Below are positions 24,657 through 46,577 of a stretch of DNA of 64,000 nt, piece by piece (positions within the stretch are counted from its first letter, which is position 1; each line of letters opens with the position of its first letter). The position numbers and the translations under genes were made by a program. The DNA lies in contig JBNKIR010000041.1 of assembly GCA_050290785.1 (NCBI GenBank), positions 44,404 through 108,403 on the forward strand, given 5' to 3'. The DNA comes from Sedimenticolaceae bacterium. Its GTDB lineage: Bacteria; Pseudomonadota; Gammaproteobacteria; Chromatiales; Chromatiaceae. The notes below the pieces were generated by a model, which did no database searches, was not told the origin of the DNA, and worked only from the letters and a program-made list of their open reading frames with translations.

Positions 24657-24720
24657 GGACACTCGTTTTTAACCTGATCCAGGATAGGATTTGCGCCTGT
24701 TCGGAAATCCGGGGTAGCGC

Positions 24721-27698: not shown

Positions 27699-28166
27699 AT
27701 GCCAACTTTTGTGCGTACCGATAAGTGTGATGGATGCAAGGGTCAAGGTGAGATCGCCTGCATGTACATCTGCCCGCATGATCTTATGAAGCTGGATGTA
27801 GACGGTTCTGAGACCGGCCATGCAATGCAGGCCTTTAACCAGGAGCCGGAACAGTGCTGGGAGTGTTACTCCTGCATCAAGATCTGTCCGCAGCAGGCCA
27901 TTGAGGCAAGACCTTATGCCGATATCGTTCCGTTGGGTGGTTCAGTGCAACCTCAACGCGGGACCGACTCCATCACCTGGACCATCCGATTCCGTAACGG
28001 CAACATGAAGAGTTTTAAATTTCCAATTCGCACCACGACCGAGGGATCCATTGACGCCTATGGCGGCAAGCCTGATGCAGATATCGGCAAGATCAGTGAG
28101 CCGGGTTTCTTTGTACAGAACAACGGCTATCGTGCCGGCGACACCGACGAACTGATCCGCAAATAA
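27699..28166 (+). CDS. aprB: Adenylylsulfate (APS) reductase beta subunit, copy 1
   Basis: 155 aa. MPTFVRTDKCDGCKGQGEIACMYICPHDLMKLD plus CWECYSCIKICP give two [4Fe-4S] cluster motifs. The insertion in the first cluster motif resembles sulfate-reducer-type AprB. Confidence 0.93.
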   Translation: MPTFVRTDKCDGCKGQGEIACMYICPHDLMKLDVDGSETGHAMQAFNQEPEQCWECYSCIKICPQQAIEARPYADIVPLGGSVQPQRGTDSITWTIRFRNGNMKSFKFPIRTTTEGSIDAYGGKPDADIGKISEPGFFVQNNGYRAGDTDELIRK

Positions 28167-28212
28167 AGATATATCGAGCCAAAATAACAAATTATTTATT
28201 GAGGTAATAACG

Positions 28213-30201
28213 ATGGCTGGTGAATTTGGCAATCCTGAGGTAGTCGTTGAAGAGGTGGACATCCTCATCATAGGTGGCGGCATGGGGGCCTGTGGTGCCG
28301 CCTATGAACTGGGGCCATGGATCAAAGCGGCCGGTGGTGACATCAAGGTTAAACTGGTGGATAAGGCGGCCATGGACCGTTCCGGCGCCGTGGCCCAGGG
28401 GCTGTCCGCCATAAATACCTACATCGGACCCGATCAGGATCCTGCCGATTACGCCCGTATGGTATCTAACGATCTAATGGGTATCACCCGTGATGATCTG
28501 ACCTACGACCTGGGCCGCCATGTGGATGAGTCCGTACACCTGTTTGAGGAATGGGGACTGCCGATCTGGAAGACCGATGAGAGCGGTGAACGGCATGACG
28601 GATCCAAGGGCATGCCACCGCTGGCAGAGGGCGGCAAACCGGTGCGTTCCGGCAAGTGGCAGATAATGATCAACGGCGAGTCCTACAAATGGATTGTGGC
28701 CGAGGCCGCCAAGAAGGGCCTGGGCGTGGAAAACATCCAGGAACGCGTCTTTATTTCCAGGCTGGTTAACGACAAGAACGACAGCAACCGCATTGCCGGG
28801 GCCGTTGGTTTCTCGGTGCGCGAGCACAAGCTGTTCATATACAAGTTCAAGGCCTGCCTGCTGGTTGCCGGCGGTTGTGTGAATATCTTCCGCCCCCGCT
28901 CCGTAGGCGAGGGCCAGGGTCGCGCCTGGTACCCGGTCTGGAACGCAGGCTCCACCTACACCATGGCCGCTCAGGCCGGTGCCGAGCTGACCATGATGGA
29001 GAACCGTTTCGTGCCGGTCCGGTTTAAGGACGGTTATGGCCCTGTAGGCGCCTGGTTCTTACTGTTCAAGTGCAAGGCCACCAACGCCTTCGGTGAGATC
29101 TACCTGGAGCGGAACAGGGCGATGCTGGATGATTATCCTCCCTATGGGAAGGCCTCCGTTCCCGCCGCCTGTCTGCGTAATCACCTGATGCTGAAAGAGC
29201 TGAGGGAAGGCCGCGGTCCCATCTGGATAGATACCGTAACCGCGCTCGGAGATCTGTGTGCGACCCTGTCACCACGCGAGGTGAAGCATCTTGAGGCCGA
29301 GGCCTGGGAAGATTTCCTGGACATGAGTGTCGGCCAGTGCGGCATCTGGGCCGGGGAGAACATCGAGCCGGAGAGGAAGAACTCCGAATTGATGCCAACC
29401 GAACCGTACCTGCTGGGTTCTCACTCCGGCTGCTGCGGCATCTGGGTCTCCGGTCCGGAGGACCTGGGCGCACCCACCGAAGAGGAAGAGGAAGGCGTCC
29501 CTGAGCATCTGCCTTCAGGCTGGAACTGGGGCTACCGCAGCATGACCACCGTAACCGGTCTGTTCACCGCCGCCGACGGCGTTGGCGCATCTGGTCACAA
29601 GTTCTCTTCCGGCTCCCACGCCGAAGGCCGTATCGCGGCAAAAGGCATGGTCAAGTTCATCATGGACAATAGAGAGTGGAAACCTGAACTGGATACATCT
29701 GTGGAGGATCTGGTCGCTGAGATCTATCGTCCGGTGCGTAACTATATGGGGCACAAGGACGACACCACCGCTATCGATGTAAACCCGAACTATATAACAC
29801 CCAGGATGCTACAGTTCCGCCTACAGAAGCTGATGGACGAATACGTGGCTGGAATCGCCACCTACTACACCACCAATGAACACCTGCTTGCGGTGGCGGA
29901 GGAGAAGCTCGCAGATCTGAAGGAGGACGCCCTGAAGATGCGCGCCAAAGACCTGCATGAACTGTTGCGCTCCTGGGAGAACTACCACCGCATCTTCACT
30001 GCGGAGGCGCACATGAAACATATTCAGTTCCGCGAGGAGTCCCGTTATCCGGGCTTCTACTACCGCGCCGACAAAAACTTCATTGATGAGGAACACTGGA
30101 AGTGCTTCGTAAACTCCATCTATGACAAAGAGGCCAAGACCTTCAAGTGTTTCAAGCGCGCGCATACGGATCTGATCGACAAGTCCAAGCTGTTCAAATA
30201 G
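28213..30201 (+). CDS. aprA: Adenylylsulfate (APS) reductase alpha subunit, copy 1
   Basis: 662 aa with an FAD fingerprint (ILIIGGGMGACGAA), DRSGAVAQGLSAIN and RFKDGYGPVGAWF. Collinear with copy 2 but clearly divergent. Confidence 0.95.
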   Translation: MAGEFGNPEVVVEEVDILIIGGGMGACGAAYELGPWIKAAGGDIKVKLVDKAAMDRSGAVAQGLSAINTYIGPDQDPADYARMVSNDLMGITRDDLTYDLGRHVDESVHLFEEWGLPIWKTDESGERHDGSKGMPPLAEGGKPVRSGKWQIMINGESYKWIVAEAAKKGLGVENIQERVFISRLVNDKNDSNRIAGAVGFSVREHKLFIYKFKACLLVAGGCVNIFRPRSVGEGQGRAWYPVWNAGSTYTMAAQAGAELTMMENRFVPVRFKDGYGPVGAWFLLFKCKATNAFGEIYLERNRAMLDDYPPYGKASVPAACLRNHLMLKELREGRGPIWIDTVTALGDLCATLSPREVKHLEAEAWEDFLDMSVGQCGIWAGENIEPERKNSELMPTEPYLLGSHSGCCGIWVSGPEDLGAPTEEEEEGVPEHLPSGWNWGYRSMTTVTGLFTAADGVGASGHKFSSGSHAEGRIAAKGMVKFIMDNREWKPELDTSVEDLVAEIYRPVRNYMGHKDDTTAIDVNPNYITPRMLQFRLQKLMDEYVAGIATYYTTNEHLLAVAEEKLADLKEDALKMRAKDLHELLRSWENYHRIFTAEAHMKHIQFREESRYPGFYYRADKNFIDEEHWKCFVNSIYDKEAKTFKCFKRAHTDLIDKSKLFK

Positions 30202-30219
30202 GGACTATAGAGGTAACGC

Positions 30220-31110
30220 ATGGGGAACAACGGAGGAGGTATCCCCTATTCGAGTAATCTGGTTCCGGCCAATCTGGAACTGGACTCCAGGCTGGAGTTC
30301 CATTGTGCCCCGGGGATATCCTGCTTCAATGCCTGTTGTAAACGGGCGGACATCACGCTCACGCCCTATGACATCATCCGTCTCAAGGATCGTCTGGGCA
30401 AGAGTTCCACCGCTTTCCTGAGGGAACATACCGTACCGTTTCAGATGGAACAGGACGGCCTGCCCGGGGTGAAGCTGCGTACCGACAATGACGGCCAGTG
30501 CCTGTTTATGACCGGTGCCGGCTGCAGTGTATACGAAGATCGCCCTACCGCCTGCAGGTACTATCCACTGGGCCACATGGCCATGCACAGGGGCGGCGAG
30601 GCCCACGAGGAGACCCACTACTTCCTGATTAGAGAGGATCACTGCATGGGGCACAACCAGGGTCGTGTACTCACCATCCGGGAGTTTCTGCAGGAACAGG
30701 AGACCGGCAAATACGATGAGACAAACCAGGCGTGGCTGCAGATCATGCTAAAGAAGCGTTCCTCCGGACCCAACGTGGGGCGGTTGCCGGAGAGCTCGTT
30801 GCAGATGTTCTTCATGTGCTCCTTCGATATGGATCGTTTCCGGCGTTTCATCACCAGTGATGGCTTCAGGAACACCTATGAGCTGGATGATTCTGTATAC
30901 GAAACCCTCGCTAATGGAGATATCCCCCTAATGTACTTCGGCATCAGGTTCATGCGGCAGGCATTTTTTGGCGAACGCACCATTCCAGAGAGAGAGGGCG
31001 CCTGGGAAAATAGGGTTAAAGAGCGGGAAAAGGTGTGGGAGACCCGTCGTCAGGCGGAGATTATACGCAGGCGACATCAAGTAGATGAGAAAACCGGAGA
31101 CGACGGATAG
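30220..31110 (+). CDS. YkgJ/UPF0153-type Cys-rich (putative Fe-S or Zn) protein
   Basis: 296 aa, 18 nt downstream of aprA-1. Cys motifs are FHCAPGISCFNACCK and CLFMTGAGCSVYEDRPTACRYYP, typical of the CxxCxxCC family. The long C-terminal extension is uncharacterised. Confidence 0.65.
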   Translation: MGNNGGGIPYSSNLVPANLELDSRLEFHCAPGISCFNACCKRADITLTPYDIIRLKDRLGKSSTAFLREHTVPFQMEQDGLPGVKLRTDNDGQCLFMTGAGCSVYEDRPTACRYYPLGHMAMHRGGEAHEETHYFLIREDHCMGHNQGRVLTIREFLQEQETGKYDETNQAWLQIMLKKRSSGPNVGRLPESSLQMFFMCSFDMDRFRRFITSDGFRNTYELDDSVYETLANGDIPLMYFGIRFMRQAFFGERTIPEREGAWENRVKEREKVWETRRQAEIIRRRHQVDEKTGDDG

Positions 31111-33574: not shown

Positions 33575-36500
33575 ATGCTTCTTAAAACTAAAATTCTAGC
33601 TGTGGTGGCGGTTGTTTTTCTTGGACACTTCGCAGTGGCTGAGTATGTCAGCCACCAACAGGTCAAGGCGGATGTCATTAATGATATCAGGGATGATGCG
33701 CGTGTGGTTCGCGGCATGGTGATGGCGCTTAGAGCCGTATATCAAAAATATATCATTGAGCACAAAGTCCCGATAAATGACATGACACTTGGGCTCCTGC
33801 CTGCTGAGGCGCTTACCCGCATCTCCCTGGAATTCAGGAACTGGGTTGATTCAGGCCTCAGCTTTAATAATGTGATTGATACACCGCGCAACCCTATCAA
33901 TATGGCAGATGAGATCGAGATGGAGGCCATAAGATACTTCAAGTCCAGACCAAAGGAAAAAGAGCGTCTGGTGCCATTCAAAGATAAGAATGGCGCCCCA
34001 TATTACCACTACTCCCAGCCCATCTGGATGGAACAGCGTTGTCTGGAATGCCATGGCGATTATGACGCAGCTCCCGAGAGCGTCAGAAAGAGATACAGCC
34101 TGGGATATGGCTATAAGTTGGGTGACTTTGGCGGGTTGATGAGCATCAAGCTACCTGCATCAATAATCGAGCAGCGCGTCAACCAGCAACTTTGGCACAA
34201 CGCATTGAGTCACTTTGGCAGTCTTCTAGTTACATATCTACTTCTATCCTGGTTATTGCAGAGCGCCGTCCTCTCCCGTATCAGCAAGCTTAAGGATGCG
34301 GCCGTCAGAATGGCCAAAGGAGACTATTCTGAACGCGCCCGGTTGCCGGGAAGTGATGAGATGACACAGGTATCCATCGCATTCGATGATATGGCACAAA
34401 AAATTGAGAAACGGGAACGGGCCCTTGAGGTACAGAAATCGCTCTATGCCGCTCTGTCCTGGACATCAAAGAGCATAACCCGGCTGGATTCACAGCGGGA
34501 ACTATTCAAGCATACCTGCCGCATCGCAGTCGAGCATGGAGGTATGGATCAGGCCTGCATCGGGTTAGTGGATGCAGATAGAGAGAGATTGGAAATAGTA
34601 GAAGGTACTGGCTATAACGTCATCGGCATAAACTATTCAATGGTCACCTCACCAGCGGAAGAGGTTGCGCCAATTGTGGTCGCCGTCAGGGAAAACAGAT
34701 CCATCGTTTCGAATGACGCCAGATCAGAGTACCCAGCACATCAGTGGCAGTGGATGCTGGCGCAAAACGGGATGCAGGCCGCCGCAATATTCCCCTTAAG
34801 ACTACACGGGAGGCCAATGGGATCTTTTTGTGTACTTTCGAGAGACAGAGGATTCTTTAGTGATGAGGTAATTGGATTGCTGGACGAGATGGCGGCTGAG
34901 ATCTCATATGCGATACATAATTACCATCTTGCCGATGAACACAGGCTAACACATAAAAGACTCGAAATATCGAGTATGGAACTGAGGCGCCTGAACAGTC
35001 AGCTGAGTCTGCTGCTCGAATCCACAGGCGAGGGCATTTATGGCATCAACACTGAAGGTAAGTGTACCTTCATCAACCAGTCGGCACTGGAGATGTTCGG
35101 TCTTACGCGAGATGAGGTGATTGGAATGGCCATTCATGAAATCACTCATCATACGCATACGGATGGGACAGAGTATCCCGCAGAATCCTGTCCCATGCAC
35201 CAGGCCTTTATCTCTGGAACACCATGTAGGGTGCAAAAAGAGGTGTTCTGGCGCAAGGACGGGAGCTCGTTTCCTGTAGAGTACTCTGCCCACCCCATAA
35301 CCGAGGCAGGCGAGTTATTAGGTGCGGTGGCGGTCTTTCGTGATGTTACCGATAGCCACGCCATGGAACAGAGACTTAGTTTTCTGGCGACCCACGATCC
35401 GTTGACCAGGCTAATGAATAGATATGCATTCGAGCAGCATCTGAAGCGGGCCCTGCAGGACGCACGCTCAAATCTTTCCCAGCACGCCCTCTGCTACATG
35501 GATCTGGATCAGTTTAAGGTGGTAAACGACACCTGTGGGCATGTGGCAGGCGATGCCATGCTTCAGATGATCGCAAAGCTATTGCCGGACAATCTCAGGC
35601 AGAGCGATACACTGGCGCGCCTGGGTGGCGATGAATTTGGCCTGCTGCTGGAGGATTGCACCCTTGAGAGGGCGGAGCTACTTACGACCAAGATATGTGA
35701 GACTGTAAAGAAATTCCGTTTTACCTGGGATGATAAGACATTTTCCATAGGTGTCAGCGTCGGTATTGCAGCGATTACCGAAGAGACTATCAGCATCGAT
35801 ACGGTAATGAGCGCTGCGGATGCCGCCTGCTATATTGCCAAAGACATGGGGCGGAACCGCGTACATATCCATATGGCCGACGATGAAGAGGTGGCTAAAC
35901 GCCAGGGCGAGATGAGGTGGGTCAGCGAGATCCAGTCAGCAATCGAAGAAGACAGATTGTACCTGGATCGTCAGGCCATCATCCCTTTGTCTGAAAAAGA
36001 GCAGGACCTGGATCACTTCGAGATACTTCTCAGGATGCGGGACAGAGAAGGCAAGGATGTACCGCCAGGTGCTTTTATTCCTGCTGCGGAGCGATTTGCC
36101 ATAATGCCCATGCTCGACCGTTGGGTAATTCAAAATACCATGTCCTGGCTAGAAGAGGCCGAGAATAGAGGTCAGCGTCTGGGGCTATGCTCTATAAATA
36201 TTTCCGGGCACTCCCTGGCGGATGGAGGACTAAAAGAGTTCATACTTGATCAGATTAATATGCATAGGATCCCTCCGGAAAAGGTGTGCTTTGAGATAAC
36301 CGAGACTGCGGCCGTAAGTAGGTTGGATCAGGCCAACCAGTTTATCGGTGAGATGAGGGGACTAGGTTGTCGTTTTGCCCTGGATGACTTTGGCACAGGG
36401 ATGTCGTCGTTTGCCTATCTTAAGAATCTGCAGGTGGATTTTATCAAGATTGACGGTAGCTTTGTGCGTGATCTATTGGAGGACCCGGTAGATTGTGGAA

Positions 36501-36658
36501 TGGTTGAGTCCATTAACCAGATCGGGCACCTGATGGGGTTGAAGACCATAGCTGAGTATGTTGAGTGCGACAAGGTACGCAAGCGTCTGGCCGAGATAGG
36601 TGTGGATTATGTGCAGGGATTCGGTGTGGCCAAACCCACACCTCTAGAGTGGGACTAG
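33575..36658 (+). CDS. DUF3365(heme-c)-HAMP-GAF-PAS-GGDEF-EAL signalling protein
   Basis: 1027 aa. The periplasmic domain has CLECHG (CxxCH). After a TM segment and HAMP come GAF and PAS. The GGDEF motif is intact (RLGGDEF) with an RQSD I-site 5 residues upstream. The EAL domain has EIL, FEITE, DDFGTG and KIDGSF motifs. Confidence 0.9.
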   Translation: MLLKTKILAVVAVVFLGHFAVAEYVSHQQVKADVINDIRDDARVVRGMVMALRAVYQKYIIEHKVPINDMTLGLLPAEALTRISLEFRNWVDSGLSFNNVIDTPRNPINMADEIEMEAIRYFKSRPKEKERLVPFKDKNGAPYYHYSQPIWMEQRCLECHGDYDAAPESVRKRYSLGYGYKLGDFGGLMSIKLPASIIEQRVNQQLWHNALSHFGSLLVTYLLLSWLLQSAVLSRISKLKDAAVRMAKGDYSERARLPGSDEMTQVSIAFDDMAQKIEKRERALEVQKSLYAALSWTSKSITRLDSQRELFKHTCRIAVEHGGMDQACIGLVDADRERLEIVEGTGYNVIGINYSMVTSPAEEVAPIVVAVRENRSIVSNDARSEYPAHQWQWMLAQNGMQAAAIFPLRLHGRPMGSFCVLSRDRGFFSDEVIGLLDEMAAEISYAIHNYHLADEHRLTHKRLEISSMELRRLNSQLSLLLESTGEGIYGINTEGKCTFINQSALEMFGLTRDEVIGMAIHEITHHTHTDGTEYPAESCPMHQAFISGTPCRVQKEVFWRKDGSSFPVEYSAHPITEAGELLGAVAVFRDVTDSHAMEQRLSFLATHDPLTRLMNRYAFEQHLKRALQDARSNLSQHALCYMDLDQFKVVNDTCGHVAGDAMLQMIAKLLPDNLRQSDTLARLGGDEFGLLLEDCTLERAELLTTKICETVKKFRFTWDDKTFSIGVSVGIAAITEETISIDTVMSAADAACYIAKDMGRNRVHIHMADDEEVAKRQGEMRWVSEIQSAIEEDRLYLDRQAIIPLSEKEQDLDHFEILLRMRDREGKDVPPGAFIPAAERFAIMPMLDRWVIQNTMSWLEEAENRGQRLGLCSINISGHSLADGGLKEFILDQINMHRIPPEKVCFEITETAAVSRLDQANQFIGEMRGLGCRFALDDFGTGMSSFAYLKNLQVDFIKIDGSFVRDLLEDPVDCGMVESINQIGHLMGLKTIAEYVECDKVRKRLAEIGVDYVQGFGVAKPTPLEWD

Positions 36659-36893
36659 AAGATTCACACGCATTTGGTTGAATCTTCGGATGTACTAATA
36701 AGGGAGATGCATAGCCTCTTTTGTCATTGGGATTCCCGATAATTTCACGGCTATCTCCGGTTAGTTGTGAGATTAATCAGGATATCACTACAGTTTGTCA
36801 TAAATTTATTGTCTAGATCGGGTGGAAGTCTATACTTCTTTGTTACCTGAGGCCTCAGTCGGGATATCAAATCAGCAATCAGGGAGGTTGGAT

Positions 36894-38618
36894 GTGGCCA
36901 GTGTAAAGAATTACAACCTGTTTCTGTTGCCTAAAAGGCACAGCTCATTCAAGACGCGGGATGAGTTTACAAAAAAGAATATCAAACAGTGGATAGATGG
37001 TCTGCCCCTGGGAGGGGATCCGGAGAACTCTGCATTTGATCTATACGGCAAGTTGGACCGTCTTAACCGCCTTGAGCTCTCCCCGGCAAACAGATTTGAG
37101 ATCCTGGAACTGATAGAGCAACCCCTTGAATTCGTCCTGGGTGCATTGAAAAGGGAGTGCGCTGAAGGTGAAGCACCCCTAAATATCAAGAGACGCATGG
37201 TGGCGGATTTGCGGCTCGACATCCTGATCCAGGCGGTAAAGGCCTATAAGACAGTACTGTCGCAATTTCATGACGCCACCATCACCGGGCTTCTATTCCA
37301 TAAGCACACCAGGAGTAAGGCGCTGAGAAACGCCCTCTTTTACCTGGGTGAGTCCATACTGCACTCCTATCTGACCTATCAACCTTGCCTGCAATATGCC
37401 TGGAAGGAGCTGCACGGCATCTATTACTACTCAGTAATAAACGAACTGCAGACGCCTAAAGATATTGTGGCTAATACAGATCACCCAGACCAGATCGGTA
37501 TAGATGGGCTGTATAAACAGATGCTGTTACTGGCCCTGGCAAATCCCAATGCAATGCTTTGCGGAGAGGTGGAGAGGGTCTACGATATCCTGAAGAAGTG
37601 GGTGTCCTTTGTGGATCTGGTTCCGATCAAAAGTGCAGTAACGTCCGAATCGTTCTTTCTGATCGACGCCCAGAGTGACGGTATACCTTGCGCTCCTAAT
37701 CTGTGCAGAAACGAGATGATCCGTGTCGGCTGGTATTTAATTACAGACGAACTGGAAAAGACTCTTGCCAAAAAGGTGGCCGTGGCGGAGGCGGCACAGG
37801 CCAGTATGCGTCCCACCGATGCTGGGGCCTTGAGACTGATGAAGAGGCTGAAAGACGCCTGGTCGCAACAGATCAGATCGCGCGAACTGAGGAGTCGCTC
37901 CTCAGGCGTTGTAGAGCTGATTTGCGGCCTGGATTCCCTGCATCTAGCCCACGGAGGTCAAGATATGGATCATGGCAGGTCAAGGCCATCATCGTCGGAC
38001 TCCACCAGATCCACCCCAGGTCATCACATCATCGACTCTCCCATACTGGATAATGATGAGGTCCTGATAGAGGTTAAGCCTGGAGTCTTGGAGCTGCATA
38101 GGTCCTATGAGGTGAAACGAGGTCAACCTGAGAGAGCTCAGCATAGGGTCGGCGGTAAAGAGTGCATCGCCTCAAATAGAAGCGAAAACGGGTATGGCCT
38201 GAATTGGCCAGACAGCGGAGACGGAGGTACCAGGGTAGGTGAGTTGGTGGGGTTAAATCCCATCAACGGCGAAGCGAATGAAACCTATCTGAGTCTGGGG
38301 GTGGTTCGCTGGATGTCCGCTGAGCAGCCAGGGTTCATGGGCATGGGCATAGAGCTGCTACACGGTAAGATCGAGCCTGTTATCCTGCAACGCAGTCGGA
38401 AGGGCGTGAAGCAGATGGAGTACATAAAGGGGTTTTTACAGCATGATGCTGAGGAAGATTCCCTCAGTCTGATCGCCCCGCCTTTATATGTGACAAAAGA
38501 AGATCGATACACTGTGGTTACGGGGAACGAAGAGATCCCGGTAGATTTAATCAACATCGTCGATAGCACAGATTCATTTGTAAGATTTAAATTTGAACAG
38601 CTCTCCATAAACGCTTGA
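36894..38618 (+). CDS. Uncharacterised protein, paralog A (novel N-domain plus split PilZ-like C-terminus)
   Basis: The GTG at 36894 follows a strong AGGGAGG Shine-Dalgarno sequence and aligns with the N-terminus of paralog B. The ORF is open from 36822. Blocks shared with paralog B are KQWI..LP, NRL.(L/M)SP..RFE, AYKTV(L/M)SQFH, HK.TRS, W(K/R)ELHGIY.Y.VIN, SGVVE(L/V)I.G..SLH and LG(V/I)(V/I)RWM. It also has NRSENG, which fits the PilZ (D/N)xSxxG motif. Confidence 0.8.
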   Translation: MASVKNYNLFLLPKRHSSFKTRDEFTKKNIKQWIDGLPLGGDPENSAFDLYGKLDRLNRLELSPANRFEILELIEQPLEFVLGALKRECAEGEAPLNIKRRMVADLRLDILIQAVKAYKTVLSQFHDATITGLLFHKHTRSKALRNALFYLGESILHSYLTYQPCLQYAWKELHGIYYYSVINELQTPKDIVANTDHPDQIGIDGLYKQMLLLALANPNAMLCGEVERVYDILKKWVSFVDLVPIKSAVTSESFFLIDAQSDGIPCAPNLCRNEMIRVGWYLITDELEKTLAKKVAVAEAAQASMRPTDAGALRLMKRLKDAWSQQIRSRELRSRSSGVVELICGLDSLHLAHGGQDMDHGRSRPSSSDSTRSTPGHHIIDSPILDNDEVLIEVKPGVLELHRSYEVKRGQPERAQHRVGGKECIASNRSENGYGLNWPDSGDGGTRVGELVGLNPINGEANETYLSLGVVRWMSAEQPGFMGMGIELLHGKIEPVILQRSRKGVKQMEYIKGFLQHDAEEDSLSLIAPPLYVTKEDRYTVVTGNEEIPVDLINIVDSTDSFVRFKFEQLSINA

Positions 38619-38654
38619 AGTTCGTATAATAAACAAGCATCAACCATTTGACCC

Positions 38655-38685
38655 GGGGCGCGAAATCATGGCGCCTCGTTCTTTA
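38655..38685 (+). terminator. Weak hairpin plus T-rich tract after paralog A
   Basis: GGGGCGC (38655-38661) pairs with GCGCCTC (38671-38677), giving 7 bp with one G-U pair. GTTCTTTAT follows. Confidence 0.3.
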
Positions 38686-38797
38686 TATCACCCGCCTCAG
38701 AAATTGAGTTTATACTTAAAACAGTATATTAATTACCTGATTATATTTTGTTTTTACCTGATTCGGCTGGTTAATCGAGGATGTCTGGAGATGCTGC

Positions 38798-40645
38798 ATG
38801 ACGAGGGTTAATATGAATCCATTTATCCTGCCTGAGAGATCAACGCCGGATAAGCTAGAAGATGAGTATGACCATAAGGCGTTCAAGCAGTGGATTTCTG
38901 ACCTCCCTATTGGAAATGTCGGGAATGTAGCGCGTTCCCTGCATTATGAAATAAACCGGCACAACCGTCTGGACATGTCTCCGTTAGAGCGATTTGAGGC
39001 CATGCAGATGATGTTGCCCGCATTAGCCTTTGTGCGTGAGGGATTGTGGTCGCACTATGCAAGCAAGCCCTTTCCCCTTTCCAAGGAGAACAGGCTTATC
39101 GCCCGCCTTCATCTTGAGCTGCTCGTGGGTGTTGTGGTGGCGTACAAGACCGTCATGTCGCAATTTCATAGCGACTCCTTTACCGGCCATCTCCTGCACA
39201 AACGCACCAGATCAGAATCGGTACGGCATGCACTATTTTTTCTCGCTGAGATCCTATCGCATGAGTATGCGATATACAGGGCAAGCCCTAAATTTGTCTG
39301 GAGAGAACTGCACGGAATCTATCATTATGCAGTGATAAATGATCTGCGACTGAATGAGATTGAGGTGACAGATGACGATGCTGTCGACCACATGACCGTG
39401 GATGATATTTATAAGAGGATCCTCCTGCTTGCCCTGACAGATCCCGGCTCGTTGCTTCGAGGCGAGATCACCAGAGTAAGTGATGCCTTGATCGACTGGC
39501 TGCCTGAGATCCCAATCATCCCCGTCGGCAGTGGAATGCCGTCTCCTTCCGTTTTCATCGTCGATGCGACAAAAGATGCGCCTCCCCACGTTACAGACAA
39601 AACAGGAATGGAGCGGATTAAGATCGGCTGGTTTTTACTCACTGATCGGTTGAATGAGATCCTGGACCAGGAGATAAGTGAGATCAGAGGCAGATCGAAA
39701 AGTAAACTGCGCCCGGTAGATCTGGTGACTGCGACCCTTTTTGCCAAGCTGCGCAAGAGATGGACGCCGGACGCGGTCTTACGTGAAGAGCGCACCGATG
39801 GCTCAGGTGTTGTCGAAGTGATCAGCGGCATAGAGTCGTTGCATTGGCTGTTCGGTGGCTGGAAGCTACAACAGGAGATAGAGGATGAGCCTGATGACCC
39901 GATAGATACATGGTCCGGAGATGAGGAGAGCGACGATAGGCCGGTTCGCACACTGGAACGGGATGAATTCATTATCGATGCAGATCCGGAACTTATAGCG
40001 GCGATAGGCTCTGCTGCAAAACCGAAGAGAGACGAGGTTGAGGCCAATGGGAAGGCACAGGATGAAGTGGAGGTGGATTTTTATAACGCCGTGGCAGATG
40101 GCGAGTCCAGTGGCGAGGAGTGCACCTGTGTGAACCAAAGCAAAAGGGGTTACTATCTAACCTGGACTGGGGAAGGGGAATATCAGGCGCATGTTGGCGA
40201 ACTGATAGGGGTCAACTCAAGGGATAACCTGGATTTTGACAGTTCCTGGCGTCTGGGCATCATCCGCTGGATGCGCATGCAATCAAGCGGTCTGATGGGG
40301 TTTGGCATCGAACTGCTCGATGGAGATATTGAGTCAATCAGGCTTGATTCCAGACACACCATGGACTCCGCCCCCAATCCCACCCTGGGATTCCAGCAAA
40401 AGATTAACGGCAGGATCGATACCCTGGTCACCCGGCCCTTCCTCTTTAACAAGGGCGATAAATTGATGTTAACCACTGTAGATGGTGAAATGCCTGTTGT
40501 ACCGGGTGAGACTATAGAGTGTACGGACGCCTTTATTCGTTTTAAGATCCATTTTGATTCGCACTCGAAAGGGAAGACCAAGAAAGCTCCCACAAAAAAT
40601 ACTGGGGCTGAGGATATTTTCAATAACATTTGGGACGATCTGTAG
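38798..40645 (+). CDS. Uncharacterised protein, paralog B (novel N-domain plus split PilZ-like C-terminus)
   Basis: 615 aa with a GGAG Shine-Dalgarno sequence 7 nt upstream. It is collinear with paralog A over its whole length. It has NQSKRG ((D/N)xSxxG) and a long acidic insert (EDEPDDPIDTWSGDEESDD...) between the conserved SGVVEVISG strand and the rest of the beta-rich C-terminus. Confidence 0.85.
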   Translation: MTRVNMNPFILPERSTPDKLEDEYDHKAFKQWISDLPIGNVGNVARSLHYEINRHNRLDMSPLERFEAMQMMLPALAFVREGLWSHYASKPFPLSKENRLIARLHLELLVGVVVAYKTVMSQFHSDSFTGHLLHKRTRSESVRHALFFLAEILSHEYAIYRASPKFVWRELHGIYHYAVINDLRLNEIEVTDDDAVDHMTVDDIYKRILLLALTDPGSLLRGEITRVSDALIDWLPEIPIIPVGSGMPSPSVFIVDATKDAPPHVTDKTGMERIKIGWFLLTDRLNEILDQEISEIRGRSKSKLRPVDLVTATLFAKLRKRWTPDAVLREERTDGSGVVEVISGIESLHWLFGGWKLQQEIEDEPDDPIDTWSGDEESDDRPVRTLERDEFIIDADPELIAAIGSAAKPKRDEVEANGKAQDEVEVDFYNAVADGESSGEECTCVNQSKRGYYLTWTGEGEYQAHVGELIGVNSRDNLDFDSSWRLGIIRWMRMQSSGLMGFGIELLDGDIESIRLDSRHTMDSAPNPTLGFQQKINGRIDTLVTRPFLFNKGDKLMLTTVDGEMPVVPGETIECTDAFIRFKIHFDSHSKGKTKKAPTKNTGAEDIFNNIWDDL

Positions 40646-40668
40646 TCCAATAACTTAACAGCAATAAC

Positions 40669-41202
40669 ATGAACGATCCTGATGATACGTCTGCAACAGA
40701 CGGGCAGAGACGCATGGGCAAGGGGATGATTATAGGCGCCTGGTTGGGTTTGCTGATTGTCCTGACACTGCTGGCCAATTCCTATCTTGAGCGCGTAAGA
40801 AATCCCAACACCAGCCCGCAAACATCCAGCTCCGGCCAGGTGAAAGAGGTCCTCCTGGTGCAGAATAGGGCCGGTCACTATGTGGCCAGCGGACACATCA
40901 ATGGCAACGAAGTCACCTTTTTGTTGGATACCGGCGCGACGGATGTTGCGCTCTCAGACGACCTGGCCGCCCGACTCGGACTGCACAAGGGGGCGTATAT
41001 ATCCACCCAGACGGCAAATGGCGAGGTTACTGCGAGATTGACCATGCTCTCTGAGGTAAGTATTGGCGAGATTAGGTTGTCCGATGTCCGGGCAAGTATA
41101 TTACCGAGCATGCAGGATGATGAGGTGTTGTTGGGGATGAGCTTCCTCAGACAACTGGAGCTGGTGCAGCGAGGGGACCAGTTACTGCTGCGGCAATATT
41201 GA
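40669..41202 (+). CDS. Membrane-anchored retropepsin-like (clan AA, TIGR02281-type) aspartic protease
   Basis: 177 aa with one TM helix (MIIGAWLGLLIVLTLLA), then GHYVASGHINGNEVTFLLDTGATDVALS (DTGA active site) and LLGMSFL. It starts 24 nt after paralog B. Confidence 0.8.
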   Translation: MNDPDDTSATDGQRRMGKGMIIGAWLGLLIVLTLLANSYLERVRNPNTSPQTSSSGQVKEVLLVQNRAGHYVASGHINGNEVTFLLDTGATDVALSDDLAARLGLHKGAYISTQTANGEVTARLTMLSEVSIGEIRLSDVRASILPSMQDDEVLLGMSFLRQLELVQRGDQLLLRQY

Positions 41203-41211
41203 CCCGGCATC

Positions 41212-42771
41212 CTATATTTTGATACAGACCCCGCCGCGGCGGCTGTCCCCCTTCCCCCGAAGTTCCCCGCCGTGATCGCGCACCACAGTATGGGCACCAC
41301 CAAAAAATAGGTTCTTCCCCGGCCAGAGGTGATACTCTGGGAACCCCCTGGTTAGGGAGTCAATAGCCTCATCCGGAATACCTCCCTCAAGGTTGAGCAG
41401 CCCGCTCTCCAGGTGGATCCTGGCGAACTCCACGGCCTCGTCTACCTCCAGATTAAAGTCGATCAGATTGATCAGCACCTGCAGGATGGCGCTGCGAATC
41501 CTGTTGGAACCGCCAGAGCCGGTCACGACCCTGTCTCCGTTAGGCAGCATGGCCAGGGTTGGGGCCATCATGGATGCGATGCGTCTATCCTCGGGCCACT
41601 GGTGAAAGCCACGGGGATTGAGGTCTTCCTCACCCAGCATATTGTTCAACATGATACCTGTCCCTGGCAGGACATAACCCGAGCCCTCACCGTTTGACAG
41701 CGTCATGCTGGCCATATTGCCCATGTTATCGGCAACACTGATCTGGGTCGTGCCCCTTGAGAAGCTGGCGTGATCACGCAGGATGTTTTGGTAGGACGCG
41801 ATGGATTCAGCGGAAAGAATCCGGTCGCTGATCGTCTTGTCCAGAAAAGAGTCTATATTGTGGCCGTGTCGCAATTCCTGGGTTATCTGCATGGCATGGG
41901 CCAGATTGGCCAGATGCTCAATACAGTGATGCTGTATACCACCCAATCCCTGCCTCTCTAAAATTGCCAGGGTGAATGCGATCAGGGTCCCGCCGACGGA
42001 TGGGGCCGGATTGGTATGAAGCAGTGCGCCCTGATACTTGAGAGAGAGCGGCTCCCTTTTTTCAACACGATATCCCGCCAGATCATCCAGGTGAATGGCG
42101 CCGCCCTGTGTTCGACACTCCTGCGCCAGTCGCTGCGCCAGTTCCCCCTGATAGAACAACTCCTCTCCCTCCTGCACCAGTGCGGTGATGACATCCGCCA
42201 TAGGTCCATGCAGCACCATCTCACCTTCCGGTGCGATCCTGCCGGGATAGTTACTGCACTCATGGATGCCCAGCGCCTCTGGCCCGGACTCAATGATGGG
42301 GGCCACGATGGTGGAGATATAGTGCTGAAAACTGTTGATCGTCACCCCGGAGCGAGCCAGTTGAATGGCCGGTTCCATCAGCAGATCCAGGGGGAGAGTG
42401 CAAAGATCCCTATGCATGGCAAAAATACCACGCACCACCCCCGGCACTGCGATGGATCCCATCCCTATGTGGAACTCCTGCTGAGCGGTTCCAAAGTCGG
42501 CGATTATGGGATAGAAATCCAGCTCCTGCTCCTTGGGCTTGTGTGATGGGGTGTGGGCGAAGAAATCGTACAGTACCGGTTTGGCACCATTGAGATGCGC
42601 CAACAGAAATCCCCCTCCGCCCAGGGACGAGAGCACCGGCTCGGCTACGCAACTGGCTGCCAGCGCAGCCAGACAGGCATCAAAGGCGTTACCCCCTTCA
42701 GCTAAAATCGAGGCGGCGGCGCCGGCGGTGTCCTGATGCCCTGCAGCAACTATTCCTGGAGAGTTTTTCAT
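41212..42771 (-). CDS. ggt: Gamma-glutamyltransferase family protein
   Basis: 519 aa with a GGT N-terminal region (AAGHQDTAGAAASILAEGGNAFDA) and an autoprocessing Thr region (RGTTQISVAD). Confidence 0.88.
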   Translation of the reverse strand: MKNSPGIVAAGHQDTAGAAASILAEGGNAFDACLAALAASCVAEPVLSSLGGGGFLLAHLNGAKPVLYDFFAHTPSHKPKEQELDFYPIIADFGTAQQEFHIGMGSIAVPGVVRGIFAMHRDLCTLPLDLLMEPAIQLARSGVTINSFQHYISTIVAPIIESGPEALGIHECSNYPGRIAPEGEMVLHGPMADVITALVQEGEELFYQGELAQRLAQECRTQGGAIHLDDLAGYRVEKREPLSLKYQGALLHTNPAPSVGGTLIAFTLAILERQGLGGIQHHCIEHLANLAHAMQITQELRHGHNIDSFLDKTISDRILSAESIASYQNILRDHASFSRGTTQISVADNMGNMASMTLSNGEGSGYVLPGTGIMLNNMLGEEDLNPRGFHQWPEDRRIASMMAPTLAMLPNGDRVVTGSGGSNRIRSAILQVLINLIDFNLEVDEAVEFARIHLESGLLNLEGGIPDEAIDSLTRGFPEYHLWPGKNLFFGGAHTVVRDHGGELRGKGDSRRGGVCIKI

Positions 42772-43010: not shown

Positions 43011-46000
43011 ATGGCCGTGGCACCCAAACAAAACAGCCTACAGACACTTAAAAAACTGATCCCCCTGAATTTGCTCCCGGAAGCAGACCTGGAACAGCTT
43101 CTTAAGACAGCAGCATTCAAGCAGGATAGGGCTGGAACTTATCTGTTCCGTCAGGGGGATACCGATTACCATAATATCTACCTGCTCTCCGGCAAGGTGG
43201 CCTTACTTGATAATATGCGGGAAGTGGACAGGGTCGCGGCGGGAAGTGAGACCGCACGTTTCCCGTTGGCCCATCAGATTCCCAGAAAGAACTCCGCTCG
43301 CGCCATCGGCGTGGTTGAATATGTCCTGATCGACAATCGCAAGCTTAGCGAGATGCTGGTTCGAAACAAGGATGATGACTATAAGGTTGCCGACCTCAGC
43401 TCCACCATCAGCGATGATTGGATGGACCAGCTCCTCCAATCCAAGGTATTCCAGCAGATTCCACCATCCAACATCCAGGGTGTGATCATGCGCATGGAGG
43501 AGGTAGAGGTCAAACGCGGGGAAAAGGTGGTGGAACAGGGGGGAGAAGGGGATTACTTCTATCTGATCCACCAGGGGAGATGCACGGTTTCACGTCTGGA
43601 AGATGGCAAAAAAAAACCAACCGAGCTGGCCAAACTCGGACCGGGAGATAGCTTTGGTGAAGAGGCGCTGCTCTCTGACAGTCCGCGCAACAGCACGGTA
43701 ACCATGCTAACCAAGGGGATCCTTTTGCGTTTGGCAAAAGAGGATTTCATCCAGTTTGTAAAGCGTCCTTTGGCCAGGGGGGTAAGCTTTGAAGAGGCCG
43801 ATGCCCTGGTTGCAAAAGGTGCCGTATGGCTCGATGTCAGGTCTCCGGTACAGTATGCAGCAGGACACCTGGAACACAGTGTCAGCTTCCCGCTGGATAC
43901 CTTACGCTATCAGGCACCAAACCTGGCTTTAGATCAGAAATATGTCATCTGCTGCGACGATGGGCATTTGAGTTCCACTGCGGCATATCTCCTGACCGAC
44001 CGTGGATTTGTCGTCTCCGTCCTCGAGGGAGGACTCAGGACGGCGCCACCCGATCTTATGGTCAAGGAAAAGCCTGATACCGAGTCCAGCGCAAAGGTTA
44101 TCAGCCTGCACCCAGGCGAGGAGATCGCCGATGACAAGACTCATGCAAAACAGCAAGACGATCAGAAGGCTCTGCAACAACAGTTGGCTGCGGCAAACAG
44201 CCGCATCAAAGACCTGGGGGTAAAATTTCAGACCTATCGCGACCGACACAAGAAGGAAGAGGCGAAGCAGCTGGCAGAGATAAAGGCGCAAAAGATAATC
44301 ATCGATAAAAACCGCATCAGGCTAGATGAGCTAAGGATGAAAAGGGACGCCGACAGGAGGTTGATTGAACAGCTACAGCAAGAGTCAGGCGAGCTGAACA
44401 CCTCCATAAAAGAGGCTACTGAAAAGTTGAGCCAGGCCCAGAAGAATATCGTAGACCTTGAGGCTCGGCTTCAGGGTGCACAGGACACCAAGCAGTCAGC
44501 CGCAGCCGAAAAGGATGAGCATAGAAAGGAACTGGAGGCGTTAAGAGATAGATTGGAAGACGCCTCTGCTGAGAAGGCCGCACTGGAAGGGAAAATCGAG
44601 CGGTTGCAAAGTGGTCAGGGAGATGCCAAACAGAAACAGGATGAGGCCCTGGAAGACTTAAAACAGCAGATAAAACAGCTACAGGTTGACCTGGATGAGG
44701 CCCGTGAGATAACCCAGTCTGGACAAGCCGATCTGAAAAAGTCGCAAGAGGCAAGCCATGCGATGCAATCCGAACTGGATAAACTCAGAAAGGCAAATCG
44801 GGAGATACAGGATGAGCTGAATGAGTCCAGAGAGGCGAGTCAGACCGTACAGGACGAATTAAACCAGGCACAGGAAAGGTATCTGGAACTACAGTCAGAG
44901 ATGGCCGAGGTTAGGGGGGCCTTGCGGGACAAAGAGTCTGAGCTGGAGAGATCACTGGCTAAAACTGATCGCCAGGGAGATGAAGATACCGACGCCCTGC
45001 ACGAGGAGATCAAGACCCTTACCGAGGCACTGGCAGAATCTGATTTGGCATACGATCAAATCAGAGAGCAGGCCGAGGCGCTGGCGAAAGAAAAAGAGCA
45101 GATCCAGCAAAAGATGCGGGAGCTGGAACAGAATCGTTCACAGGATAGACCCAAACCGGCACGGGATGACAGGCGCACCTCAATCGAGAGGGAGGTCTTT
45201 GGCGACGTCGATGAAGACTTGGTTTCCAAAGGATTGGATATGGTGGAAGAAGAATCGCTACGTCAGGAACTGGAGGATCTGCGCAATGCATCCAGTAATT
45301 GGGAGCAGCGATTAAACGAGGCCGAAGAGAAATGCAGAGCCCTGGATGATGCGCTGGAGGACCGGGATAAGGAGATTGATCAGATCCGGCTGGAACTGGA
45401 CGAGGGAAAGGCCAGGCTGGTTGAGTCTGAAGAACAGCGACAGCAGAGCGACGCAACGATCAACCAGCTTAGAGAGCTGGCTGCCAGCGGAAAGCCGGTG
45501 AATGAATATGTAGATTCGCGTCTGACGAATCCCCCTGCGAAAACACTTCATATAGATAACCTGATTTCTGGTCACTCCCCTGGGCGGGCCATAGCACTAT
45601 GGGCGCTGCTGGGTGCAGGTATATGTTTTGCTGTGCTTGACGGACTGATGATCTATTCCGGACGAGGTGAGTTACTCTCAGGGATGCTACAGAATGGAGA
45701 AGAGCAACAGATTGGCCCTATGGCGGTTGAGCGAAATGGTATAGATCTACTCGCGTCATCAAGAAGAAATAGTCCGTTCATTACCAACGATAGCAAAATT
45801 GGCGCGAATACCGTGATTTCCGCCAAAGAAAAGGACCAGGCCGTGAAAACCGAGTCGTCCTGGACTGTTCTAAAGGATATAAGCTTTGGCCCGACAATGG
45901 TCAGGCTTAACGGTGGTAACTACACTATGGGCAGCAATAGGAACCAGGTCTCCAGTGATCAATGGCCTGCCCATAATGTCGAGATAAAGTCATTTGCGAT

Positions 46001-46577
46001 AAGTCAGACTGAAATCACCTTTGATGATTATGATCGCTTCGCCAAAGAGACTGGCCGCAGGCTTCCTGATGACCAGGGTTGGGGGCGTGGTTCGCGCCCG
46101 GTCGTTGATGTTAGCTGGGATGACGCTGTGGCCTACACCAAATGGCTGTCCCAACGTACAGGCAGAACATATCGCCTCCCGTCAGAGTCCGAGTGGGAAT
46201 ATGCCATTCGCAGCGGCAGTGATTCAACCTACTGGTGGGGCTATCAGATGGAGGAAGGCAGAGCGAACTGCTTTGATTGCGGCAGCGAATGGGACCGCAA
46301 GAGTACAGCTCCGGCCGCCAGCTTCCCGCCAAATAATTTTGGACTTTATGACATGGCGGGTAACGTAAGAGAGTGGGTCATGGACTGCTATCGTCCCAAC
46401 TATAGCGGCGCCCCTCAGGATGGAACCGCATGGTTGGAAAGGGGTTGTAATGAACGAGTAGCCCGGGGTGGCGCATATAATAAGACCAGCGACAGCATGC
46501 GTTCCGTCTGGAGAGGACGCTTCAAACCCAACCTACGCTTCAGCTTTACCGGTTTCAGGGTTGTGCTCGAACTTTAG
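43011..46577 (+). CDS. Multidomain protein: 2x cNMP-binding, rhodanese, about 450-aa coiled coil, TM, FGE/SUMF1-type domain
   Basis: 1188 aa. The second cNMP domain has FGEEALLSDSPRNSTV. The rhodanese loop reads ICCDDGHLSS. A Q/E/K/L-rich coiled coil spans roughly residues 370-830. The TM segment is AIALWALLGAGICFAVLDGLMIY. The C-terminal FGE-sulfatase domain has RLPSESEWEYA, GLYDMAGNVREW and RGGAY. Confidence 0.85.
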   Translation: MAVAPKQNSLQTLKKLIPLNLLPEADLEQLLKTAAFKQDRAGTYLFRQGDTDYHNIYLLSGKVALLDNMREVDRVAAGSETARFPLAHQIPRKNSARAIGVVEYVLIDNRKLSEMLVRNKDDDYKVADLSSTISDDWMDQLLQSKVFQQIPPSNIQGVIMRMEEVEVKRGEKVVEQGGEGDYFYLIHQGRCTVSRLEDGKKKPTELAKLGPGDSFGEEALLSDSPRNSTVTMLTKGILLRLAKEDFIQFVKRPLARGVSFEEADALVAKGAVWLDVRSPVQYAAGHLEHSVSFPLDTLRYQAPNLALDQKYVICCDDGHLSSTAAYLLTDRGFVVSVLEGGLRTAPPDLMVKEKPDTESSAKVISLHPGEEIADDKTHAKQQDDQKALQQQLAAANSRIKDLGVKFQTYRDRHKKEEAKQLAEIKAQKIIIDKNRIRLDELRMKRDADRRLIEQLQQESGELNTSIKEATEKLSQAQKNIVDLEARLQGAQDTKQSAAAEKDEHRKELEALRDRLEDASAEKAALEGKIERLQSGQGDAKQKQDEALEDLKQQIKQLQVDLDEAREITQSGQADLKKSQEASHAMQSELDKLRKANREIQDELNESREASQTVQDELNQAQERYLELQSEMAEVRGALRDKESELERSLAKTDRQGDEDTDALHEEIKTLTEALAESDLAYDQIREQAEALAKEKEQIQQKMRELEQNRSQDRPKPARDDRRTSIEREVFGDVDEDLVSKGLDMVEEESLRQELEDLRNASSNWEQRLNEAEEKCRALDDALEDRDKEIDQIRLELDEGKARLVESEEQRQQSDATINQLRELAASGKPVNEYVDSRLTNPPAKTLHIDNLISGHSPGRAIALWALLGAGICFAVLDGLMIYSGRGELLSGMLQNGEEQQIGPMAVERNGIDLLASSRRNSPFITNDSKIGANTVISAKEKDQAVKTESSWTVLKDISFGPTMVRLNGGNYTMGSNRNQVSSDQWPAHNVEIKSFAISQTEITFDDYDRFAKETGRRLPDDQGWGRGSRPVVDVSWDDAVAYTKWLSQRTGRTYRLPSESEWEYAIRSGSDSTYWWGYQMEEGRANCFDCGSEWDRKSTAPAASFPPNNFGLYDMAGNVREWVMDCYRPNYSGAPQDGTAWLERGCNERVARGGAYNKTSDSMRSVWRGRFKPNLRFSFTGFRVVLEL

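Follow-up and report, generated by a model that had tools for sequence, protein, structure and literature searches.

Two adjacent genes on the forward strand of a Sedimenticolaceae contig (JBNKIR010000041.1) raise the question of what kind of c-di-GMP-related protein they encode and whether they represent a new family. A first-pass annotation had read them as tandem paralogs with an unrecognised N-terminal domain and a split PilZ-like C-terminus, and as candidate c-di-GMP effectors of a possibly undescribed family. We followed up this reading in the window, the whole 64,000-nucleotide stretch of DNA that was analysed. It is probable that the two proteins, here termed A and B, form a lineage-specific tandem pair of the FimW family and act as split-PilZ c-di-GMP sensors with an altered binding motif, the C-terminal tail having been lost in A.

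Two Collinear Paralogs in Tandem

Paralog A, a FimW-family protein of 574 aa, is encoded at 36894-38618 (forward strand). Its open frame spans 36822-38618 and extends further 5' than the likely start, GTG at 36894, which lies 6 bases past a GGGAGG Shine-Dalgarno site; the 574 aa counted from this codon equal the length of the gene call on public contigs. Paralog B, likewise a FimW-family protein (615 aa), follows at 38798-40645 on the same strand. Both gene assignments draw on the open reading frame, the precomputed Pfam FimW_N label, hhalign and AF2 models, and that of A also on its start. A and B align collinearly from end to end (BLASTP, 35% identity over 584 columns, E 1e-117), confirming the earlier description of adjacent, same-strand, collinear paralogs. 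They have in common the blocks KQWI..LP, NRL.(L/M)SP..RFE, AYKTV(L/M)SQFH and HK.TRS, followed by W(K/R)ELHGIY.Y.VIN(E/D)L, LLLAL, VGEL(V/I)G(L/V)N, LG..RWM and G(M/F)GIELL.G.IE. All of the blocks listed in the first-pass annotation were found, except that its IGW(Y/F)L(I/L)TD has to be amended, since A has VGWYLITD. A scan for promoters and terminators over 36500-41400 returned sites no commoner than in shuffled sequence, and nothing in Rfam matched 36400-41400, where there is therefore no c-di-GMP riboswitch.

Assignment of A and B to the FimW Family

The P. aeruginosa protein FimW (PA4958) has been described in the literature as a c-di-GMP receptor controlling type IV pilus assembly (PMC11656802, PMC10212136, PMC12564702), which binds c-di-GMP, goes to the cell poles and stimulates pilus assembly (PMC10212136, PMC7322531, PMC12564702). 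In the precomputed Pfam annotation, FimW_N (PF27104) is present on A, on B and on 40 of 40 close homologs, and FimW_C (PF27125), which canonical family members carry, is recorded on neither A, B nor the single-copy clade. Both halves of the A/B clade are nevertheless homologous to those of proteins bearing FimW_N and FimW_C, as aligned by hhalign: the N-terminal halves with a probability of 100% (E 3e-52, 289 columns) and the C-terminal halves with a probability of 99.5% (E 3.2e-23, 277 columns), the latter in a register that sets REER opposite KRRFSR and NxSxxG opposite NVSAGG. A and B have the family's typical size (~600 aa) and collinear architecture, and are ~20-24% identical to canonical members. 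A search with the family profile found 4,987 representatives at E <= 1e-3 (some 5,000 clusters at 50% identity); of the best 150 of the 4,987, almost all are ~600 aa long and matched over their full length.

Judged by these sequence relationships, A and B are duplicated, divergent members of an already described family, and what is new here is the variant binding motif and the duplication. The N-terminal domain that had been called unrecognised is FimW_N, and the proposal of a possibly undescribed family has to be given up; the first-pass annotation had itself named homologs in an already characterised family as the outcome that would overturn it, and the homologs belong to such a family, FimW. 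That the N-terminal domain was left unplaced is understandable, because scans of A and B against Pfam-A and NCBIfam copies older than the FimW models gave nothing significant. Homologs are labelled 'hypothetical protein' at NCBI and, in some cases, 'cyclic-di-GMP-binding protein' at JGI. Searching PDB sequences with this profile yielded chance matches alone (E of at least 0.57) and no relative with a solved structure.

The proposed tie of A and B to the characterised PA4958 draws on Pfam family names, synteny and the literature. A search with the homolog P0037 returned relatives from Thiohalobacter and Thiogranum, with no Pseudomonas among the 120 matches listed. PA4958 was not among the homologs from the search with the 109-sequence alignment, whose candidates were those already known from the initial search, and a cluster look-up for 10 central representatives gave metagenomic proteins only, without PA4958.

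A Predicted PilZ-Type Barrel Split by an Insert

In the architecture that we propose for A and B, a mostly helical FimW_N domain of ~320 aa would be followed by a predicted PilZ-type c-di-GMP-binding beta-barrel, in which a probably flexible insert of 65-85 aa lies between the Arg-motif loop with strand 1 and the strand bearing (D/N)xSxxG, and by a putative second small beta domain after the barrel. The AF2 models (pTM 0.74 and 0.72) place beta-barrel strands around the motifs with high local pLDDT, and the C-terminal part of A has a mean pLDDT of 79.9. In two independent Foldseek searches of the PDB, the top matches were mostly c-di-GMP-binding PilZ proteins (PlzD 2rde, PlzA 7mie, MrkH, YcgR, MotI and BcsA) with probabilities of up to 0.9; E is at least 0.02 (none below 1e-3), TM-scores are low at 0.2-0.3, and two-barrel serine proteases are also listed. 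For the N-terminal domain, Foldseek with the full-length model gave low-probability helical matches only (such as Cry toxins and designed repeat proteins). Pfam PilZ (PF07238) does not match A or B at E <= 1 and matches one of 28 relatives (E 0.15). When the family's C-terminal profile, either complete or with the insert removed, was compared by hhalign to MapZ/PA4608 (sequence checked against PDB 5xly/2l74), nothing meaningful was aligned, the power of such a profile-versus-single-sequence comparison being low.

A and B share with the canonical PilZ receptors (YcgR, PlzD/VCA0042, MapZ/PA4608, MrkH and PlzA; PF07238), which account for the majority of the top matches of either Foldseek search, a predicted beta-barrel and the order of the motifs: the Arg motif precedes strand 1, and (D/N)xSxxG sits where strands 2 and 3 turn. 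They differ from them in lacking a significant Pfam PilZ match (and in Foldseek E values of 0.02 or worse), in having a 320-aa helical domain instead of PilZN as partner, in the extra beta domain past the barrel, and in the distance between the two motifs, which is 95-115 residues compared with the ~20-30 usual for canonical PilZ domains. The insert is 64 aa long in A (37959-38150, forward strand, after beta-strand 1 and before the NxSxxG strand, mostly of low confidence) and 83 aa in B (39860-40108, forward strand, with pLDDT <50 over residues 358-437). It contains 11 D/E and 9 K/R in A and 27 D/E and 8 K/R in B, so its strongly acidic character in B stands; overall it is a little shorter than the 70-100 aa claimed at first. 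An insert of ~65-100 aa between the Arg motif and (D/N)xSxxG runs through 109 diverse members, and the split PilZ-like module is a feature of the whole FimW family and not of A and B alone. A large insertion in the PilZ barrel is also found in Xanthomonas XCC6012 (PDB 3ph1), a tetrameric non-binding PilZ protein that is among the structural matches (probability 0.9). XCC6012 is without c-di-GMP motifs and its insertion is a helical tetramerisation bundle, whereas A and B have an intact (D/N)xSxxG, and most of their insert is predicted with low confidence. The beta-rich C-terminus with PilZ-type motifs split by a long insert, as first described, is borne out.

An Altered Arg Motif Fixed in the A/B Clade

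At the family RxxxR position, A has SRELR (aa 329-333; 37878-37892, forward strand), with the first Arg replaced by Ser and an Arg at +1, and B has LREER (aa 328-332; 39779-39793, forward strand), with Leu in place of the first Arg; the canonical RxxxR before strand 1 is present in neither. Both conform to the (D/N)xSxxG motif of PilZ domains, through NRSENG in A (aa 428-433; 38175-38192, forward strand) and NQSKRG in B (aa 446-451; 40133-40150, forward strand), as had been proposed. Across the family (B numbering), R328 is found in 104 and R332 in all 109 representatives, N/D446 in 109, S448 in 108 and G451 in 109; A and B keep the invariant second Arg and (D/N)xSxxG. The deviation noted as RELR/REER (RxxR) is real and clade-specific: the five representatives lacking R328 all belong to the A or B clade, and xRxxR is fixed in 18 of 18 A and B orthologue sequences, with the first Arg replaced in every one and R329 and R332 kept in all B orthologues.

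The first Arg of RxxxR is normally required for c-di-GMP binding by PilZ domains, and c-di-GMP-blind adaptors are known, such as P. aeruginosa PilZ (PA2960) and XCC6012. It is possible, though rather unlikely, that A and B are adaptors of this kind, which would have kept the FimW scaffold and its protein interactions and lost nucleotide binding. The restriction of R328 loss to the A/B clade would fit this explanation, as would the failure of the Pfam FimW_C model to register on A or B and the structural match to XCC6012. Yet all 18 A/B orthologues (45-68% identity) keep N, S and G in (D/N)xSxxG along with both the second and the +1 Arg, which is unexpected for an abandoned site. Furthermore, RRxxR, with Arg at +1, occurs in 28 of 109 family members, so the +1 Arg was already present in the ancestral site. 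For A and B as c-di-GMP sensors, the motif suggests that binding is probably retained but altered, and the earlier label of 'candidate c-di-GMP effector, possibly degenerate' named the right functional class.

Duplication History and Tail Loss

B ends in IFNNIWDDL (40616-40642, forward strand), its version of the family-wide tail motif (D/E)Fxx(I/L)Wxx(L/I); a regular expression for this motif matches 99 of 109 representatives, and most others carry close variants. Every B and single-copy orthologue has the tail, whereas it is missing from the nine A orthologues and from P0041. The A and B clades are sisters, and a single duplication is retained as A+B orthologue pairs in eight other related MAGs (45-68% identity), as found by a genome scan with clade-specific patterns that reaches close relatives only. 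Replacement of the first Arg of RxxxR preceded the duplication, so that both copies have a conserved xRxxR, and A lost the FxxIWxxL tail afterwards. This loss points to a division of labour between A and B, which may cooperate.

Genomic Context of the Pair

As first reported, the pair lies directly downstream of a DGC/PDE gene (33575-36658, forward strand; Pfam/NCBIfam domain scans). Its product, a 1027-aa Tll0287-like/HAMP/GAF/PAS/GGDEF/EAL protein, has an intact GGDEF motif, RxxD site, EIL variant of EAL and DDFGTG. This gene adjoins the pair in loci L005, L006 and L011 and lies ~5.7 kb upstream in L023. Downstream, a gene for a clan AA (DTGA) retropepsin-like protease of 177 aa with an N-terminal membrane helix (40669-41202, forward strand; TIGR02281, 109 bits) begins 23 bases past B and is probably co-transcribed with it. 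The order of a FimW-like gene and then the DTGA protease gene recurs in 11 of 14 related loci and in L023 (L020 is the same contig as L017), several with gaps of <=23 bases or overlaps. Conserved alongside A and B are the genes for the membrane retropepsin-like protease, for GGT and for a cNMP-rhodanese-FGE protein, rather than pilus genes. The window also contains, ~11 kb downstream, a PilT/PilU-family type 4a pilus ATPase gene (51893-53011, reverse strand; TIGR01420, 443.6 bits, cutoff 319), so the organism possesses type IVa pilus genes.

The usual genomic partner of fimW is FimX (P. aeruginosa PA4959). A and B resemble this arrangement in that a GGDEF-EAL gene adjoins them, but its product differs in length, in its Tll0287-like/HAMP/GAF/PAS sensors and in having GGDEF and EAL motifs that are intact; beside canonical FimW genes, the FimX-like product is a REC-PAS-GGDEF-EAL protein of ~690-710 aa. 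No FimX-like neighbour was found in the window or in L005-L018, whereas such a gene stood alongside in 4 of 4 canonical FimW loci examined, in agreement with the published fimW-fimX arrangement (PMC11656802).

This context would suit a pair re-purposed from type IV pili as a c-di-GMP-dependent regulator or substrate adaptor of the retropepsin-like protease, possibly with GGT and the cNMP-rhodanese-FGE protein, an explanation that we regard as unlikely. In its favour are the recurrent, tightly spaced protease gene beside A/B-type genes and its absence from canonical loci, where FimX takes its place. Functional coupling, however, does not follow from synteny alone, the neighbours GGT, DjlA and HD-GYP resemble a conserved housekeeping block, we found no link between this protease family and c-di-GMP, and a PilT/PilU gene lies 11 kb away. 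It is more doubtful still that xRxxR and the split between A and B are the signature of a heteromeric sensor derived from FimW, in which ligand handling has changed and B alone keeps a partner-docking tail. Such a sensor could bind c-di-GMP with another stoichiometry or affinity, or another cyclic nucleotide, and its output could have shifted away from FimX and type IV pili, towards the membrane protease encoded in the same probable transcript.

Discussion

By analogy with P. aeruginosa FimW, the most likely function of A and B is to respond to rising c-di-GMP by way of the split PilZ module; a change in their oligomerisation or localisation would follow, and with it the promotion of type IV pilus assembly or of a related surface-attachment output. 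An undescribed family with a novel N-terminal domain, which the empty scans with older models, the NCBI labels and the lack of a structural relative in the PDB might have suggested, is highly improbable and is refuted by the FimW_N labels in newer Pfam, which also holds FimW_C, and by the hhalign matches to both canonical FimW halves, with the JGI names and the FimW literature pointing the same way.

FimW is a recognised c-di-GMP effector whose mode of action reviews still treat as unknown. For annotation, our results place 'hypothetical proteins' of sulfur-oxidising Gammaproteobacteria in the FimW family, in other respects an ordinary finding. The lineage is also a natural experiment, in which the first Arg was replaced, xRxxR fixed, the gene duplicated and one copy left tail-less. 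A comparison of A and B to the single-copy orthologues that have RxxxR could reveal the residues that set c-di-GMP affinity in a split PilZ module, as well as the binding partner of the tail.

Two Tandem Paralogs and Their Conserved Blocks

The two adjacent genes, A and B, lie on the same strand (+), with open reading frames at 36822-38618 and 38798-40645, respectively; B encodes 615 aa. The probable start of A is a GTG at 36894, with a GGGAGG site six bases before it, giving a protein of 574 aa, which is also the length of the gene called for A in identical public contigs. The first-pass annotation, made from the sequence alone, described the genes as tandem, same-strand, collinear paralogs, and indeed BLASTP aligns A with B over their full length at 35% identity (E 1e-117). 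The shared blocks and motifs that it listed are all found where it placed them, except that A carries VGW where IGW had been given. Its description of the insert in B as strongly acidic also holds, with 27 D/E against 8 K/R in 83 aa; the insert in A is 64 aa long. The observation is genuine and well described, yet the pair belongs to a known family.

A and B Match FimW-Type Proteins in Both Halves

Searches of A and B against local copies of Pfam-A and NCBIfam gave no match. In precomputed annotation of public proteins, PF27104 is assigned to B and to each of its 40 detectable homologs, and in the annotation of identical public contigs this family, named FimW_N, is found on both A and B. A second family, PF27125 (FimW_C), is annotated on more distant full-length homologs; neither A nor B has a recorded match to the Pfam FimW_C model. 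Profile-profile comparison was run separately for each half, between the A/B clade and proteins carrying both FimW_N and FimW_C. The N-terminal halves matched with a probability of 100% (E 3e-52, 289 columns) and the C-terminal halves with a probability of 99.5% (E 3.2e-23, 277 columns); in the latter alignment, NxSxxG and the Arg motif line up. Because both comparisons are significant, A and B are, as judged from sequence profiles, homologous to canonical FimW-type proteins in both halves. The earlier suggestion of a possibly undescribed family is ruled out by the FimW_N labels on both proteins and by this profile homology.

A family profile built from 28 sequences and searched against 1.84 billion representative proteins recovered 4,987 members at E <= 1e-3, of which 2,174 reached E <= 1e-30. 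Among the 150 matches listed, nearly all are ~600 aa long and matched end to end; the family is large, and its architecture is fixed.

The tie between A/B and the characterized P. aeruginosa protein PA4958 rests on the Pfam family names, the fimW-fimX-like synteny and the literature. The known c-di-GMP effectors of P. aeruginosa include FimW (PA4958; PMC10335732), which is regarded as a PilZ-domain protein of type IV pilus assembly (PMC12564702). Upon surface contact, FimW binds c-di-GMP, moves to the cell poles and promotes the assembly of pili (PMC10212136, PMC7322531). How FimW acts is still described as unknown (PMC6581867, PMC11656802), and the phenotypes of fimW mutants are under debate (PMC12288467; bioRxiv 10.64898/2026.09.03.749161).

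The Split PilZ Signature and Its Variant in A and B

In 109 diverse family representatives (B numbering), Arg is found at position 328 in 104 and at 332 in all 109, N or D at 446 in 109, Ser at 448 in 108 and Gly at 451 in 109. The family signature is the canonical PilZ RxxxR ... (D/N)xSxxG, its halves separated by an insert of ~65-100 aa. The C-terminus had been described as a split, non-canonical PilZ domain. The first Arg of RxxxR is indeed absent in A and B; the split layout is common to the whole family and is not peculiar to this locus. R328 is missing in five of the 109 representatives, namely A, B and three others from the A and B clades, and 28 of the 109 have RRxxR, with Arg at +1. 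Within the otherwise variable insert (37959-38150 in A, 39860-40108 in B) there is a conserved short element around D389-E390 of B, RDEFIIDADPEL in B and NDEVLIEVKPGV in A, which is invariant or nearly so in A, B and the single-copy clades.

In the AF2 model of B (mean pLDDT 73.8, pTM 0.74), a mostly helical N-terminal domain with a small sheet (residues ~26-321) is followed by the Arg motif (328-332), strand 1 (338-343) and a short helix, the low-confidence insert (358-437) and a run of strands (440-519), the first of which ends in N446-x-S448, with G451 after it. A second beta domain (527-586) precedes a linker and tail, both of low confidence. The C-terminal 257 residues of A, modeled independently (mean pLDDT 79.9, pTM 0.72), have the same layout. 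For the proposed PilZ-type barrel, Foldseek searches of the PDB with both models were mixed: the best-ranked matches are mostly c-di-GMP-binding PilZ proteins (probability up to 0.9), but with TM-scores of 0.2-0.3 and nothing below E 1e-3. The top PilZ matches are BcsA, MotI, MrkH and YcgR for full-length B, and PlzD/VCA0042, PlzA, MrkH, YcgR and MotI for the C-terminal model of A, which also matched the tetrameric PilZ protein XCC6012, which is known not to bind c-di-GMP. Two-barrel serine proteases appear lower in both lists. The models thus suggest a PilZ-like fold for the C-terminal module, for which the motif evidence is the stronger.

An Old Duplication and Loss of the C-Terminal Tail in One Copy

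Taking one genome per species, we identified 14 related loci, in 11 Sedimenticolaceae MAGs, one Chromatiales MAG and two unclassified gammaproteobacterial MAGs. Tandem orthologs of A and B occur in eight (50-64% identity to A, 45-68% to B), and the remaining six have a single copy ~33% identical to B, in four cases within a similar gene neighborhood. A neighbor-joining tree places the A and B clades as sister groups, with the single-copy clades outside. In the single-copy proteins the motif is the canonical RxxxR; it is xR(E/A/G)(L/I/V)R in the A sequences (9/9) and xRE(E/K/G)R in the B sequences (9/9). Given this topology and these motif states, the most parsimonious history has the first Arg lost, and the Arg at +1 kept, before the duplication, a state that both copies would have held since. 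That A and B, both lacking R328, have turned into nucleotide-blind adaptors is rather unlikely in our view; the retention of xRxxR in both copies since the duplication points to a variant site that still works, not to decay.

At least 99 of the 109 representatives end in a conserved motif, (D/E)Fxx(I/L)Wxx(L/I), which is preceded by a low-complexity linker and resembles a short docking motif. It is present in B (IFNNIWDDL, 40616-40642), all B orthologs and all single-copy orthologs, and every A ortholog is without both motif and linker, which is a clear sign that A and B have diverged in role.

Genomic Neighborhood

The first-pass annotation had placed a gene for a diguanylate cyclase/phosphodiesterase directly upstream, and a GGDEF-EAL gene (33575-36658) does adjoin the pair. 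Its 1027-aa product has Tll0287-like, HAMP, GAF, PAS, GGDEF and EAL domains, with the GGDEF, RxxD, E(I)L and DDFGTG motifs intact. Such a gene adjoins the pair in the window and in three related loci (L005, L006, L011), the flanks of the others being too short to judge. In L023, a 49%-identical B-clade locus, it lies ~5.7 kb upstream, with an hdr-like cluster on the opposite strand between it and the pair. Clusters of this type (CCG, Fer4, FlpD, FAD-binding) are found in related genomes immediately upstream of, and on the strand opposite to, the FimW-like gene(s) (1526-6764 in L023; 4538-9613 in L020, on the same contig as the single-copy locus L017), and none is present at the corresponding window position. 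Farther upstream are AprB and AprA (APS reductase) genes followed by one for a CxxCxxCC protein (27699-31110, +); this arrangement is consistent with a sulfur-oxidizing Sedimenticolaceae-type gammaproteobacterium. The 64-kb window also contains TrkA and two separate TrkH genes (23283-26172 and 60785-62230).

Beginning 23 bases downstream of B is a gene (40669-41202, +; TIGR02281) for a retropepsin-like protease of clan AA (DTGA), 177 aa long and with a membrane helix at its N terminus. No neighbor is more consistent: in 11 of the 14 loci, and also in L023, this gene comes directly after the FimW-like one. Next come GGT and the gene (43011-46577, +) for an 1188-aa protein with an unusual combination of cNMP-binding, rhodanese, long coiled-coil (weak SMC/Rad50 matches) and C-terminal FGE-sulfatase/PvdO-like regions, whose synteny is kept in 11 of the 14 loci. 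Farther downstream, within 8-12 kb of the pair, genes encode an HD-GYP-type c-di-GMP phosphodiesterase (DUF3391 + HD_5; 48167-49195, -) and a type 4a pilus ATPase of the PilT/PilU family (51893-53011, -; TIGR01420, 443.6 bits). Rfam found no riboswitch or other family over 36400-41400, and a promoter and terminator scan around the pair was uninformative.

We also examined four canonical fimW loci, from Thiohalobacter sp. IOR34 and three metagenomic contigs. All four have a gene for a FimX-like REC-PAS-GGDEF-EAL protein (~690-710 aa) next to fimW or one gene further downstream, in agreement with the published finding that fimW is encoded with fimX (PMC11656802). Upstream are epmB (radical SAM) and a divergent efp-epmA pair, with parC/parE or psd nearby; the epmB/efp-epmA/fimW/FimX-like block is conserved across distant Gammaproteobacteria. 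The protease gene is absent from these loci, whereas A and B are flanked by it and have no FimX-like neighbor. A shift of output to this membrane protease, probably co-transcribed with B, seems improbable, although it is compatible with ligand binding.

Together, the homology, architecture, motif states, duplication history and synteny are observed, and A and B are best interpreted as divergent FimW-family c-di-GMP receptors, whose ligand binding and output we infer. The family to which they belong is already known; new are the clade-specific variant of the binding motif, the old tandem duplication with tail loss in one copy, and the altered neighborhood. By analogy with P. aeruginosa FimW, A and B may couple the c-di-GMP level to type IV pilus assembly or surface attachment.
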